Below, in pieces: positions 324-5,864 of a stretch of 5,864 nt of DNA (position 1 is the first letter of the stretch; every line of letters begins with the position of its first letter). Origin of the DNA: a virus (taxonomy: Duplodnaviria; Heunggongvirae; Uroviricota; Caudoviricetes); the IMG/VR virus record IMGVR_UViG_2778261567_000003. One strand, given 5' to 3'. The position numbers were made by a program, and so were the translations under genes. The notes under the pieces were generated by a model. It did not search any database. It saw only the letters and a list, made by a program, of their open reading frames with translations, and had not been told where the DNA came from.

Positions 324-743
324 ATGAAAATGCAGATACAGCAGGAAATCAATGTTCTCCACAGCTTTCGTGAGTTTAACAACAATGACTGTGAGGTTCG
401 TGATTATATCTATGAATTGATGAACGGTGACGGTGTGTGTTTTCTGTTTATCGACCTGTATCAATGGTATGCAGACCAGCAGTGTGAATCTGTCCGGCAG
501 CGTTTTGATTATGAGTGCTTTGATGTGGACGTATGGGAAGGCCTGCGTTTTGGTTTTCTGATCCCGGGTGATTATCGCCGGGAGTGGCGACATAGTTACT
601 CCATTCTTCGGGCAATCATGCGTGGCGAAACCCGAAAAATGCCGGGGATGGGTAAGGTTAATCGCGGCCTCCTGTTAGAGATAGCAGCGGCGCACATGAA
701 TCCATTACTGATACAACCGGAGTTTACTTATGAATTTGTTTGA
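324..743 (+). CDS. hypothetical protein (139 aa)
   Basis: ATG at 324 preceded by GAGAGG at 313..318; aromatic/acidic-rich translation; its 3' end overlaps the next start by 14 nt. Confidence 0.6.
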   Translation: MKMQIQQEINVLHSFREFNNNDCEVRDYIYELMNGDGVCFLFIDLYQWYADQQCESVRQRFDYECFDVDVWEGLRFGFLIPGDYRREWRHSYSILRAIMRGETRKMPGMGKVNRGLLLEIAAAHMNPLLIQPEFTYEFV

Positions 744-960
744 TTCACTGAATAACGCCCGTCGCCTGACCGAGCTTGCCGGTGCGGTACTGGAACGCAG
801 TAAGCGCTATCCGCAACGTTTTGCACTGAAAACCACGCCGCCGGTAGGCGAGGTTCAGGGGAGTGGTGAAGAAATTGAAATCACCGTTAAGACCAACGGC
901 CTGCGCCGCCGTGTGAAGGCCACCCGCATAAGCGGATGCACGGTTTACTGGGAAGTATGA
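730..960 (+). CDS. hypothetical protein (76 aa)
   Basis: ATG at 730 with GGAG at 719..722; start lies inside the 3' end of the previous gene (translational coupling). Confidence 0.55.
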   Translation: MNLFDSLNNARRLTELAGAVLERSKRYPQRFALKTTPPVGEVQGSGEEIEITVKTNGLRRRVKATRISGCTVYWEV

Positions 961-1615: not shown

Positions 1616-2146
1616 ATGGTTAAACGTGTTACAAAATTAAAGGCCGCAGCCGAGGCTGCACCGCAGACCCGCGAAGAAGTCAGCCGCGATATCCGCACCC
1701 TGGGCGATATTCAGCGAGAGGCGCTGCGCCTGGAAACGGCAATGAATGATGAAGTGGCAGAAATCACCGCCCGTTATACGCCGCAGATTGAAAACCTTAA
1801 AAAAGAAATCAAAGTGCTTTTTAAAGGGATTCATGACTGGTGTAAAACCAACCGCAATGAGCTGACGAACGGCGGCGAAACCAAAACTGCCAATCTGACC
1901 ACCGGAACGGTGTCATGGCGGCTGGGAAATCCATCATGCAGCGTCAGTCGTGATGTGGAAGGTGTGATTGAAATGCTGCGTCGTATGGGGCTTGAGCGCT
2001 TCATCCGCACGAAAGAGGAAGTGAATAAGCAAGCTGTCCTGGCAGAGCCGGATGCGGTGAAAGGGATTGCTGGTATTAAGGTGAATAAAGGCGCTGAAAG
2101 TTTTCATGTCGAGCCTTTTGAACAGGACGCCGGACTGAATAAATAA
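1616..2146 (+). CDS. gam: Mu Gam-like host-nuclease inhibitor (Ku-like DNA-end-binding protein), 176 aa
   Basis: ATG at 1616 with AAGGA at 1604..1608. The translation shares long collinear motifs with phage Mu Gam as I recall it (LGDIQREAxRLETxMND, NRxELTNGG, KTANLxTGxVSWR, GLxRFIRTK, PFEQxAG) and is almost the same length (Mu Gam is about 174 aa). Recognition is from memory, not a database hit. Confidence 0.88.
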   Translation: MVKRVTKLKAAAEAAPQTREEVSRDIRTLGDIQREALRLETAMNDEVAEITARYTPQIENLKKEIKVLFKGIHDWCKTNRNELTNGGETKTANLTTGTVSWRLGNPSCSVSRDVEGVIEMLRRMGLERFIRTKEEVNKQAVLAEPDAVKGIAGIKVNKGAESFHVEPFEQDAGLNK

Positions 2147-2230
2147 CACCGCATTAAATCTTTAAATATCACATCGTTTTAATTATGGCGCTTGCGTCAG
2201 GGGACTGCTCGCGCCTGAATGAGGCATATC

Positions 2231-2809
2231 ATGAGTATAAAATATCGTTATTTTAAAATGAATGAGCGCGATTCCCGTCATTATCACAGGGAATGGCTTG
2301 ATTGCGCTGGCAGGGAGTGCAAGAAATTGATTGATGATTTTCTCAGTAATCATAGAGCTAAAGGATACCTTTACTTCTGGTGTTGTGGGCATATTTTTGT
2401 CACATCAATACTGGTTCATGAGGATGTTGATGTCGGAAGAAATAAGCGGGTGCTGTCTGATAAATTTGATGAAGATGGCCGCGTTTTATTTTCAGTTAAG
2501 CCCGACCGCAGATTCAGAGAGGGAAAAAAACTGAACAAAGCACTGAATATCTTAAACGAGAAGTTAAAACAGCTTCCGTCATTCAGTACCTGGATGGTTA
2601 ATAAACTGGACTGCTATTTTGAGGTTTTTGGTGTCAGCAACGGCCGCACAGTTATGGCGTGCTCTTCTGCCGGGTTCTATGGCGACAAAGGGGCTGTTGT
2701 GGTTCGTATTCCTGTCGGTGAATCAGATAATGCCTTTTCCCCTGAAAAGCTGCATCCGTCATTGATGGCAATCAAGCATTCCGAATTCATCGCAATAACG
2801 GAGGAATAA
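2231..2809 (+). CDS. hypothetical protein (192 aa), first gene of a coupled four-gene cassette
   Basis: ATG at 2231 with GAGG at 2221..2224; preceded by an 84-bp AT-rich intergenic gap after gam. Sequence looks AT-richer than its neighbours by eye. No confidently recognised domain. Confidence 0.7.
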   Translation: MSIKYRYFKMNERDSRHYHREWLDCAGRECKKLIDDFLSNHRAKGYLYFWCCGHIFVTSILVHEDVDVGRNKRVLSDKFDEDGRVLFSVKPDRRFREGKKLNKALNILNEKLKQLPSFSTWMVNKLDCYFEVFGVSNGRTVMACSSAGFYGDKGAVVVRIPVGESDNAFSPEKLHPSLMAIKHSEFIAITEE

Positions 2810-2812
2810 TTC

Positions 2813-3346
2813 ATGATTGATGCAAAAGTGCTTGAAGGGGTTAAAAACTGGCTGCGTATTTACGGACGTCTGACCTGCGGTGTTCTGGCTGAAAAAATGA
2901 ATATGCCGCCATCCTCCATGGTTTATTTTCTGCGTGATGCGGTTGATGCAGGCGTGCTGACGGAATGTAACGGTTTTTATGATATTCCGCGTCCCCGCCC
3001 GGTGCAGCCGGTTCGTCGCAAATGCAGCCAGGAGTCTGCGGCTGATGATGTTCAGTGGTGCAGCTTCAGAAAATCCCTGCCGTGGATTGAAGGGCATGAT
3101 ATTCCGTCGATGGCGTGGGAATTTGCTCAGGGCGTGCTGACCTGTGAAACCGTTTATGTGGTGGCTGAAGTTGATGAGCAGGCCATGAAAGAAGGCGTGC
3201 CCCAGTTTGTGATGGCGTATATCGACATACGCCTGGGTGTCATTATCTGCGGTTTAAGCGGCTGGAATATCACCTCGCGCGTTCTGCGTTACCTGATTGT
3301 TGACCGGACGGCCGCGCCTGCCGGGATATCAGCGGAGGTGGCGTAA
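2813..3346 (+). CDS. hypothetical protein with N-terminal winged-helix-like DNA-binding region (177 aa)
   Basis: ATG at 2813 with GGAGGA at 2799..2804, 3 nt after the previous stop. The N-terminal ~55 aa (LEGVKNWLRIYGRLTCGVLAEKMNMPPSSMVYFLRDAVDAGVLTE) has the spacing and hydrophobic pattern of a winged HTH; the C-terminal ~110 aa is unrecognised. Confidence 0.7.
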   Translation: MIDAKVLEGVKNWLRIYGRLTCGVLAEKMNMPPSSMVYFLRDAVDAGVLTECNGFYDIPRPRPVQPVRRKCSQESAADDVQWCSFRKSLPWIEGHDIPSMAWEFAQGVLTCETVYVVAEVDEQAMKEGVPQFVMAYIDIRLGVIICGLSGWNITSRVLRYLIVDRTAAPAGISAEVA

Positions 3347-3861
3347 TGTTCTTTAAAACATCAAACCCTTCCGCGCTGGCCGCGTGGCAAAAATACCAGC
3401 AGGACTGCCAGACGGTAAAAGATGAGGCGAAACGCCTTGAGGCCGTGCTGAATGTTGCGTGCCGGTCGGTATTTGAATTCAGTATCAGTGGTTTTTGTTT
3501 TAAGGGACTGCGTTTTACGGAGGACAAATATCCTTTTCATCGTGATTTATGGCGAAAACCAACTGCGTCGAATGGCTGGAGCTGCACACCGCGCACATCA
3601 CGTATTCCCAAAGCCCTGCGCGTTGCCTCTGACGAACTTAACAGTCTGTGGCGTGAATATTCGCCCGTCACGTATGCCAGAACCGATGCACTGTTGTTCT
3701 GGCTGGGCATTGATTTCTCGGCAATCCTGTTTGGCCCTGTGGAGTGGTTCTGCGTTGACGATGTGATTTACCTTCAGTGCGGCGTAAAACCCGCAAAACA
3801 GAAAATGACCGAAATTCTGTCTGATGAGTTTTATGCTGCTGAAAAGCGAGTCAGGGGGTGA
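3346..3861 (+). CDS. hypothetical protein (171 aa)
   Basis: ATG at 3346 overlaps the TAA of the previous gene (TAATG), with GGAGGTG at 3334..3340. No recognisable motif. Confidence 0.65.
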   Translation: MFFKTSNPSALAAWQKYQQDCQTVKDEAKRLEAVLNVACRSVFEFSISGFCFKGLRFTEDKYPFHRDLWRKPTASNGWSCTPRTSRIPKALRVASDELNSLWREYSPVTYARTDALLFWLGIDFSAILFGPVEWFCVDDVIYLQCGVKPAKQKMTEILSDEFYAAEKRVRG

Positions 3862-3864
3862 TGC

Positions 3865-4416
3865 ATGATGATATTACAACCCATGGGGAGAAAAGGCCGT
3901 GCACCCGCTCATGTTCGCGCATGGACACCTGAAGAAGATGCGCTGCTGATTGCGCTTTATCCATCCACCCCGGTTAAGGATATTGCTGTCAGGATAAAAA
4001 GAAGTTTCTGGGGTGTACATAACCGGATTGTTTTATTACGCGGTACTTACCCGGAGTTGCTCAAATGCAAACGCCTCAGATTTAAACCTGATGAAGATAA
4101 ATTTATCCGAAAAAATGCCAGAACAATGACCGGTAAGCAAATAGGAGAATATCTGGGGCGAGACCGGGATTCTGTCCACAATCGGGCGCGATATATTGGC
4201 GTAAGCATGAAAAAATACGGAGAGTTGCTGCCCTTCACCCGTATACCTGACGATGATGTTCATCTTATTCGTGAATTACGGGATGCTGAATCACCACGAC
4301 GTCTTACCTTCCGGGAAATTGGCGAGAAATTTGAATTATCCGAGAGTACGGTGAGTTTTATTTATCACCATCGCCGGACTGCCGAAGATGTTGTATTACG
4401 GGAGTTAATGCCATGA
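3865..4416 (+). CDS. putative DNA-binding protein with three tandem HTH/Myb-like repeats (183 aa)
   Basis: ATG at 3865 (or 3868), 3 nt after the previous stop, G-rich SD 3854..3860. Internal repeats: WTPEEDALLIALYPSTPVKDIAVRIKRSFWGVHNRIVLL / KPDEDKFIRKNARTMTGKQIGEYLGRDRDSVHNRARYIG / IPDDDVHLIRELRDAESPRRLTFREIGEKFELSESTVSFIYHH. Confidence 0.7.
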   Translation: MMILQPMGRKGRAPAHVRAWTPEEDALLIALYPSTPVKDIAVRIKRSFWGVHNRIVLLRGTYPELLKCKRLRFKPDEDKFIRKNARTMTGKQIGEYLGRDRDSVHNRARYIGVSMKKYGELLPFTRIPDDDVHLIRELRDAESPRRLTFREIGEKFELSESTVSFIYHHRRTAEDVVLRELMP

Positions 4417-4529
4417 TAACGACATTATTTGTTGAATCAGATGAACCCCTTGTATGTGCCGCCGGAATGCCGGTCTGTGGCGGAACGCTGACCGGTGTTT
4501 ATTTCGGGGATTTGCGCGGTTATCCCTAG
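4413..4529 (+). CDS. possible micro-ORF (38 aa)
   Basis: ATG at 4413 overlaps the TGA of the previous gene (ATGA); GGAG at 4401..4404 with an 8-nt spacer. Translation MITTLFVESDEPLVCAAGMPVCGGTLTGVYFGDLRGYP. Below the size cut-off of the supplied ORF track; only the RBS and coupling geometry support it. Confidence 0.3.
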   Translation: MITTLFVESDEPLVCAAGMPVCGGTLTGVYFGDLRGYP

Positions 4530-4559
4530 CATTCACTGGATGACGCATTTCCGCCTGAT

Positions 4560-4745
4560 ATGGAGGCTGTCGTGCTGATTGTTCAGTATGGTGACCAACA
4601 GGAACTGCGCATCGGCCATATGGGGTATGAAGGCTTTTTTGTTGATGAAGAAACCGGAGCCTGCCTTGAAGATGAAGACGGACAGGTGACGCACTGGTGC
4701 CATATTTCATCTTTACCGGAATTACAGGAGACGCCCAATGGATGA
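4560..4745 (+). CDS. hypothetical small acidic protein (61 aa; may start at GTG 4572)
   Basis: Open frame with ATG at 4560; an internal GGAGG (4562..4566) precedes GTG 4572 and could instead be the RBS for that start. Its 3' end overlaps the next ORF by 8 nt. Confidence 0.45.
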   Translation: MEAVVLIVQYGDQQELRIGHMGYEGFFVDEETGACLEDEDGQVTHWCHISSLPELQETPNG

Positions 4746-4878
4746 TCAAATAGTTGAATGTCCCACCTGTGGAAATGAAGCCCCGGAGTATCTGAAAGAG
4801 TGCCCACATTGTGGTGAGGTAAAATGTAATCACTGCGATATGGGCGACGACACTGCATGTATGAATTGTGAGGATTAA
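4738..4878 (+). CDS. zinc-ribbon-like microprotein, 46 aa with four CxxC motifs
   Basis: ATG at 4738 with AGGAG at 4726..4730. Translation MDDQIVECPTCGNEAPEYLKECPHCGEVKCNHCDMGDDTACMNCED contains CPTC, CPHC, CNHC and CMNC. Not in the supplied ORF track (under 60 aa). Confidence 0.55.
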   Translation: MDDQIVECPTCGNEAPEYLKECPHCGEVKCNHCDMGDDTACMNCED

Positions 4879-4882
4879 TAAT

Positions 4883-5170
4883 ATGGAAAAAGAAATCAAA
4901 TTTGCGCCTATAGATATCGACGAAGAACTGGCTAAAATCGGCATGCCTGAACGTATGCGTGACATTATCGAATATGCGATAAAAGAAAATCTTGGAGCCA
5001 GAGAGGCACTGTCGATAATGGAGCGGGAAATTAATCTGATTAATGAAGCGGTTTCTCTGGAAAACAAAATAGCCCGCGAGGAATACGTTCGCCGCAGGCT
5101 TGGTGTTGATGGTTCAGCAATTCTTACATCTGAACATTATGCAAAAATTTTTAATCTTTTTTCGCGGTAA
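4883..5170 (+). CDS. hypothetical protein (95 aa)
   Basis: ATG at 4883 with GAGGA at 4870..4874; charged, helix-like translation (MEKEIKFAPIDIDEELAKIG...). Looks AT-rich by eye. Confidence 0.6.
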   Translation: MEKEIKFAPIDIDEELAKIGMPERMRDIIEYAIKENLGAREALSIMEREINLINEAVSLENKIAREEYVRRRLGVDGSAILTSEHYAKIFNLFSR

Positions 5171-5390
5171 TGCCCATGCAGGCCCGGAGATTGTCGAAAT
5201 GCCAGTTTGTATTAATATATGAGCCATCCTGGTGTCCCTCTGCGCTTTGGGGTGCGGCACTTTTTTGAGCAATATTGATAATATGTGTTGCCTCCTCACG
5301 GGAAATAACCCCCTTATCGAACAGGGTTACCATAAGATTTCCAGCCATTGTGAATGCGGCAACATCAAGGGCATTTTTTATATCTGACAT
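5151..5390 (-). CDS. hypothetical protein (79 aa) on the opposite strand to the rest of the operon
   Basis: Minus-strand ATG (5388..5390) is preceded by AAGGA with a 7-8 nt spacer. The region has no convincing + strand ORF. The N-terminal ~45 aa look protein-like (MSDIKNALDVAAFTMAGNLMVTLFDKGVISREEATHIINIAQK). Overlaps the 3' end of the + strand gene 4883..5170 by 20 nt. Confidence 0.4.
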   Translation of the reverse strand: MSDIKNALDVAAFTMAGNLMVTLFDKGVISREEATHIINIAQKSAAPQSAEGHQDGSYINTNWHFDNLRACMGITAKKD

Positions 5391-5460: not shown

Positions 5461-5864
5461 ATGAATCGCGCTTCCCTGATTACCTTAATACATGTCGCAA
5501 AACGCGATCTACAGCTTGACCGGGAGACCTATACATCCGCGCTGCTGGCAGCCACCGGCAAAACCAGCTGCCGGGATATGTCACCGGATGAGTTATCCCG
5601 CGTGCTGGATGTTTTAAAAAAACGCGGTTTTAAAGTGCGCCAGAAGCCGGTTAACCGGGCCTTAAAACCGGGTACGGTGACCGCCAAAATTCGTGCCATC
5701 TGGAAGGTGATGCACCGGCAGGGCTTTATCTCTGATGGTGCGGAAACCGCTCTTAACCGCTGGGTGAAATCGCAGACGGCCGCGCAGAACGGCGGCGAAG
5801 GTGTGGCAAACTGGCAGTGGCTGGAGCAACACCCCGCCCTGGCCTCAGATGTGCTGGAGCGTCT
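5461..5864 (+). CDS. gemA: GemA/gp16-like protein (Mu-like prophage DUF1018 family), 3'-truncated by the window edge
   Basis: ATG at 5461 with GGAG at 5449..5452. Translation MNRASLITLIHVAKRDLQLDRETYTSALLAATGKTSCRDMSPDELSRVLDVLKKRGF... fits my recollection of the GemA/gp16 N-terminal pattern, and its position downstream of gam matches Mu synteny. Open to the end of the window. Confidence 0.72.
   Translation, partial: MNRASLITLIHVAKRDLQLDRETYTSALLAATGKTSCRDMSPDELSRVLDVLKKRGFKVRQKPVNRALKPGTVTAKIRAIWKVMHRQGFISDGAETALNRWVKSQTAAQNGGEGVANWQWLEQHPALASDVLER

Follow-up and report, generated by a model that had tools for sequence, protein, structure and literature searches.

A bacteriophage Mu gp11 ortholog with a winged-helix-like N-terminus and a Gp11_C domain in a Mu-like prophage of Enterobacterales

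Identity and conservation of the gene

We analysed a DNA stretch of 5,864 nucleotides (nt) from a virus of the Caudoviricetes (IMG/VR record IMGVR_UViG_2778261567_000003; the whole stretch is referred to below as the window) and found that the gene at positions 2813..3346 on the + strand is almost certainly the ortholog of bacteriophage Mu gp11 (Mup11), a non-essential protein that Mu-like transposable prophages of Enterobacterales encode in their "semi-essential" early region. Its product of 177 amino acids (aa) was aligned with Mu gp11 by tblastn across residues 1-177 (Mu positions 6424..6951, i.e., 100% of Mu gp11) with 68.4% identity, and an identity of 68% over 177 residues makes a spurious alignment implausible. 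In addition, phrog_1949 covers positions 1-176 of 176 (E = 1e-105), and the Pfam family PF25754 ("Phage Mu Gp11 C-terminal domain", referred to as Gp11_C) matches aa 90-167 with its complete profile (1-78 of 78; E = 8e-40) and a score of 135.5 bits, as compared to a gathering cut-off of 27. The gene is located within the Mu-like semi-essential early region, between gam and gemA; all three of the defining features of the Mu gp11 family (PF25754/phrog_1949) that were tested are present.

The coding sequence is an ATG..TAA open reading frame (ORF) with exactly the coordinates and strand given in an initial annotation of the window, which had been made from the letters alone. A Shine-Dalgarno sequence read from the sequence (GGAGGA, 2800..2805, + strand) is located 7 nt before the ATG, within the final codons of the preceding gene (stop codon at 2807-2809). 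A word-indexed search recovered 222 gp11 homologs, and the ratio of nonsynonymous to synonymous substitution rates (dN/dS; Nei-Gojobori method, 60 unique gene sequences) was 0.17 overall. An antisense ORF with 112 codons (2759..3097) was considered as a competing gene and was rejected, as it carries 1 to 6 stop codons in 34 of 34 divergent homologs. The number of homologs, the low dN/dS and the broken antisense frame together indicate that gp11 is a genuine gene rather than a chance ORF. No Rfam family was matched in the whole window. One 105-aa homolog (P0152) begins in the gp11 frame and runs on in the frame of a spurious internal ORF (2979..3140, +1 frame); this reflects either a frameshift in that copy of gp11 or an error in its sequencing.

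The gene is not a new entity, as identical and near-identical sequences are found in public databases (100% identity in IMG/VR locus L008; 98% identity for P0001), and its family is already catalogued in Pfam and PHROGs, with orthologs in phages Mu, D108 and SfMu. The two catalogue entries (PF25754 Gp11_C and PHROG 1949) define membership and carry no functional annotation. Mu gp11 itself (NP_050615) is annotated as hypothetical in the Mu record (NC_000929), where the ORFs E10, E11 and E12 were merged into gp11 once frameshift errors had been corrected. Among 5,426 complete E. coli genomes, 232 carry the gene, always annotated as "hypothetical protein", and up to 4 copies are found in some of them. 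No match to gp11 was found in NCBIfam, and PDB sequences searched from either the protein or the family profile returned only noise (MIF at E ~1).

Two conserved domains joined by a variable linker

The protein is composed of two independently folding domains under purifying selection. In an alignment of 33 non-redundant gp11 homologs (A1), aa 1-57 are nearly invariant, aa 58-81 form a variable Pro/Arg-rich linker and aa 82-165 form a second conserved block, with dN/dS values of 0.13, 0.33 and 0.14, respectively. The initial annotation had proposed a winged helix-turn-helix (wHTH)-like N-terminus of about 55 aa followed by about 110 aa with no recognised motif. This two-part layout agrees with our data, as does the wHTH-like character of the first part; the C-terminal part, by contrast, does have a recognisable match, to PF25754, even if that family is itself uncharacterised. 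Mu gp11 and its orthologs in D108, SfMu and Yersinia phages show the same two-domain layout, and their genes are likewise located after gam and before gp12.

The N-terminal domain (aa 1-57; 2813..2983, + strand) was modelled with three helices (residues 4-17, 22-28 and 33-45), the last of which (2909-2947, + strand) would represent the recognition helix, and with a wing at residues 46-57 that includes an invariant NGFY turn and was modelled at low confidence. The predicted fold of the domain is a three-helix bundle with a beta-hairpin wing. No variation was seen at L40, R41 or Y56 across the wider family. When a profile of 14 diverse N-terminal domains (A3) was compared to PDB sequences, it retrieved only wHTH regulators, i.e., a DtxR-like protein (E = 0.0018) followed by CodY, MarR/AdcR, ArsR and SelB; on this basis we accept the wHTH assignment, with the caveat of the low-confidence wing. 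Among the closest known systems are the wHTH domains of Lrp/AsnC, MarR, ArsR and DtxR regulators and the Zalpha domains. The gp11 domain has the wHTH fold in common with the four regulator families but reaches no family threshold, is net acidic, does not carry their dimerisation elements and has an unrelated domain on its C-terminal side. The linker (2984..3055, + strand) is basic, with an isoelectric point (pI) of 9.5, and is probably disordered, as suggested by its predicted local distance difference test (pLDDT) values, its variability in A1 and its higher dN/dS.

The C-terminal Gp11_C domain (aa 82-165; 3056..3307, + strand; the Pfam match at aa 90-167 corresponds to 3080-3313) is acidic and of the alpha/beta type. 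Modelled alone from an alignment of 23 diverse Gp11_C sequences (A2), it was predicted with confidence (pLDDT 89.7; predicted template modelling score 0.77) and contains a short helix (residues 99-104), a strand (113-120), a second helix (122-126) and three further strands (132-138, 143-146 and 157-162). Four residues alone (W91, G94, E119 and R159) are invariant throughout the family. Comparison of this fold showed no structural similarity to any known inhibitor, and the best matches in BFVD were DUF551 proteins, which were not significant (Foldseek E 0.1-0.25). Homology to DUF551 (PF04448) was therefore considered as a candidate relationship and rejected, as none of the 23 members matched DUF551 even at E up to 10; a comparison through YfdS gave an hhalign probability of 0.09, and a scan of viral contigs with YfdS returned only near-identical YfdS copies.

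The Gp11_C family is narrow: when 1.84 billion representative proteins were searched exhaustively with HMMER, only 48 clusters reached E <=0.001. Its members are from Escherichia, Salmonella, Citrobacter, Serratia, Hafnia and Rahnella, together with phages of Shigella and Yersinia, and all named members are either "hypothetical" or "Gp11 C-terminal domain-containing" proteins. While a single wHTH in front of Gp11_C is the commonest architecture, other N-termini were also observed, including two tandem wHTH copies (P0125 from Serratia and P0126 from Hafnia), a weakly Ead/Ea22-like region (P0133 and P0137), a coiled coil (P0160) and other unrelated sequences (P0134, P0138, P0151 and P0165). Wherever the contig was long enough (including L003 and L004), the early region around the Gp11_C gene was Mu-like, with gam (or DUF3164) on one side and gemA on the other; the context could not be read for P0160, P0151 and P0165, which are on contigs of 1.6-3.2 kb (L005, 1.6 kb). 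The varied N-termini and the Mu-like settings indicate that, in Mu-like phages, Gp11_C behaves as a portable module placed at the C-terminus. Similar portability is reported for DUF551 and for the C-terminal domains that vary among lambdoid Ea22 proteins (PMC10834534), and Gp11_C resembles such exo-xis/Ea22-type modules in being small and placed behind varied N-termini. This is a loose analogy, as all Gp11_C loci with readable context are Mu-like whereas the Ea22/DUF551 modules are lambdoid; the Ead_Ea22 region (PF13935) is absent from the protein studied here and weak in P0133 and P0137, which share only Gp11_C with it.

Coupling to gp12 and candidate functions

The gp11 stop codon (TAA, 3344-3346) shares its last base with the start codon of the following gene, gp12 (ATG, 3346-3348), forming a TAATG overlap (3344..3348, + strand), and a GGAGG sequence is located inside the 3' end of gp11 (3334-3338). 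The coupling noted in the initial annotation is therefore real, and the same 1-nt overlap is found in Mu (6424..6954 and 6954..7484). Among 82 gp11 loci sampled (80 viral contigs, one Citrobacter genome and L006), gp12 followed with a 1-nt overlap (TAATG or TGATG) in 60. That annotation had further suggested that gp11 and gp12 are made in fixed ratio and may interact; the overlap with its internal Shine-Dalgarno sequence, its retention in Mu and in 60 of the 82 loci, and the opposite charge of a basic gp12 (pI 8.7) and an acidic gp11 would all fit an obligate two-subunit complex. However, where gp11 was <90% identical to that of the window (43 loci), gp12 was present in 21 and absent from 22, its place being taken by gp13-like, gp14-like or other small genes, and in L006 gp11 directly overlaps (ATGA) the ortholog of the Myb/HTH gene that follows gp12 in the window. 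A gp12 homolog was also absent from every distant Gp11_C locus examined (L002-L006 and L169-L171), and no neighbouring gene was constant beside Gp11_C across the distant loci. Moreover, consecutive genes of the operon in the window are separated by 12, -14, 74, 4, 10, 72, 3, -1, 3, -4, 30, -8 and 4 nt, so that a stop/start overlap is the local norm rather than the mark of a special pair. Overall, gp12 is a facultative neighbour of gp11, and an obligate gp11-gp12 complex appears unlikely; the initial interpretation is supported in part.

We tentatively propose, as a possible reading, that gp11 is a small accessory protein that modulates DNA transactions or gene expression during early lytic growth. 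Two independently folded modules would be joined by a flexible basic linker, with the putative winged helix most likely binding nucleic acid (DNA) and Gp11_C most likely mediating protein-protein contacts, either by self-association or by docking to a host or phage partner; such a protein would be neither a classical repressor or activator nor part of an obligate complex with gp12. Several observations weigh against this proposal. All Pfam HTH matches of the protein alone (HTH_20, E = 0.11-0.15; HTH_10; HTH_24) fall under the gathering threshold, and residues 52-88 of the model have pLDDT <50, so that the wing itself is poorly modelled. The N-terminal domain is net acidic (pI 5.1; 6 Lys/Arg as compared to 7 Asp/Glu), the putative recognition helix contains one Arg (R41) and the putative wing contains no basic residue. 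Judged from its composition, such a domain seems unlike a typical wHTH that binds DNA and would also suit a winged helix that binds protein; because these electrostatics are unusual for a DNA-reading wHTH, DNA binding is plausible but not assured, with the invariance of R41 as an indirect indication in its favour. As modules other than HTH domains replace the wHTH in relatives, DNA binding would also be dispensable for the role of Gp11_C. Finally, no experimental data on gp11 were found in the literature searched (Mu gp11/Mup11/E10-E12 and functions of the semi-essential region).

The main rival to a DNA-binding modulator is an effector aimed at the host rather than at DNA: Gp11_C, the acidic winged helix or both would bind a host protein and inhibit or redirect it (in takeover or counter-defence), in the manner of the neighbouring Kil, Gam and GemA. 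The acidity of the whole protein (pI 5.2) and of its wHTH would fit this alternative, as would the narrow family, restricted to one host clade, and the placement of Gp11_C behind interchangeable N-termini, as described for Ea22 C-terminal domains (PMC10834534); furthermore, the assigned functions of the region are host-directed and lethal to the host (PMC3325207, PMC4553209). We nevertheless regard it as somewhat unlikely, as the nearest relatives of the N-terminal domain in both sequence and structure are DNA-binding regulators, PADLOC models gave no match at E up to 1 for gp11 (nor for gp12 or the DUF5420 protein encoded upstream) and no likeness to the structures of known inhibitors was detected. 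It is improbable, to a degree comparable with the gp11-gp12 complex, that Gp11_C represents an unseen fold acting as a portable effector of Mu-like phages, with gp11 providing a semi-essential Mu function that is defined by genetics and not yet assigned to a gene (e.g., arm or cim) or a new DNA-tethered inhibitor of a host factor or defence. A conventional transcription factor acting on phage or host promoters would account for the wHTH relatives named above, but is quite unlikely: the C-terminal domain does not show the beta-alpha-beta-beta-alpha-beta arrangement of the RAM domain that an Lrp/AsnC-like protein would have, and, for a MarR- or ArsR-like protein, there is no MarR or HTH_5 match and a bare wHTH is followed by a disordered linker instead of being flanked by dimerisation helices. 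Least probable by far is an enzymatic Gp11_C, e.g., a papain/CHAP-like cysteine hydrolase, since neither candidate residue is conserved; distant members lack the Cys of a "GCES" motif, and a His that frequently precedes "VLRYL" is an Arg in the protein studied here.

The remaining interest of the gene lies in Gp11_C, a confidently predicted domain with no solved relative in a classic model phage. If the function of gp11 were worked out, a role would be assigned to this domain and one of the gaps left in the Mu gene map would be closed; Mu has served as a model system for 60 years, and its semi-essential early region is still mostly unannotated.

Neighbouring genes in the window

The record of an Stx1a phage contains a "region of the inserted Bacteriophage Mu-like phage" that shares 95% identity with the window. 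The closest phage records (LC727895/LC727881) are those of Stx1a- and Stx2c-converting phages in which the Mu-like element is annotated as inserted; in these records, one transposable phage thus sits within another prophage that carries Shiga toxin. In Mu, the polycistronic semi-essential region comprises about 14 ORFs, which are termed dispensable and largely uncharacterised in the literature. The early genes of Mu are expressed from a long early (Pe) transcript (PMC3820752). Neither a promoter-like site nor a + strand terminator-like site was found within 2100-4500, and this uninterrupted stretch is consistent with expression from a long early transcript as in Mu.

Upstream of gp11, all on the + strand, are a gp8-like ORF (324..743), which overlaps by 14 nt a Kil-like gene (730..960; PF26843-type in relatives), then gam (1616..2146; PF07352, E = 2e-39) and a DUF5420 gene (2219..2809; PF17457, phrog_2260), which ends 3 nt before gp11. 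Gene order around kil departs from that in Mu, where kil directly follows B. Mu also has no DUF5420 gene between gam and gp11; most of the 82 gp11 loci lack this gene, which seems to represent a facultative cassette.

Downstream, on the + strand, the gp12 ortholog (3346..3861; 171 aa; phrog_2314) is 54% identical to Mu gp12, and no match was found for it in Pfam or among PDB sequences. It is followed by a gene that distinguishes this prophage from Mu, encoding a basic Myb/HTH protein of 183 aa (3865..4416; pI 10) with weak Myb/SANT-like and sigma-70 region-4-like HTH matches (phrog_323, "transcriptional regulator, D5-like"); this protein shows partial similarity to Mu gp9. Further downstream are the orthologs of gp13 (4738..4878) and gp14 (4883..5170), and a GemA-like ORF begins at 5461. 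A 79-codon ORF on the minus strand (5151..5390) runs towards the gp14 ortholog in convergent orientation and shares 20 nt with the 3' end of that gene; by position only, it matches Mu gp15, the sole minus-strand gene of the Mu early region.

Between the Myb/HTH gene and gp13 is an interrupted + strand gene of about 110 codons (4413..4745), homologs of which adjoin Gp11_C genes at three distant loci (L003, L170 and L171). An in-frame TAG at 4527-4529 leaves an ORF of 38 aa (4413..4529, with an ATGA overlap with the preceding gene) and one of 61 aa (4560..4745). In 30 related loci, this codon is TGG (Trp) within an unbroken ORF of 103-113 aa, with one exception that carries another frameshift. 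Going by this comparison of sequences, the TAG looks like a nonsense mutation private to the present prophage copy.
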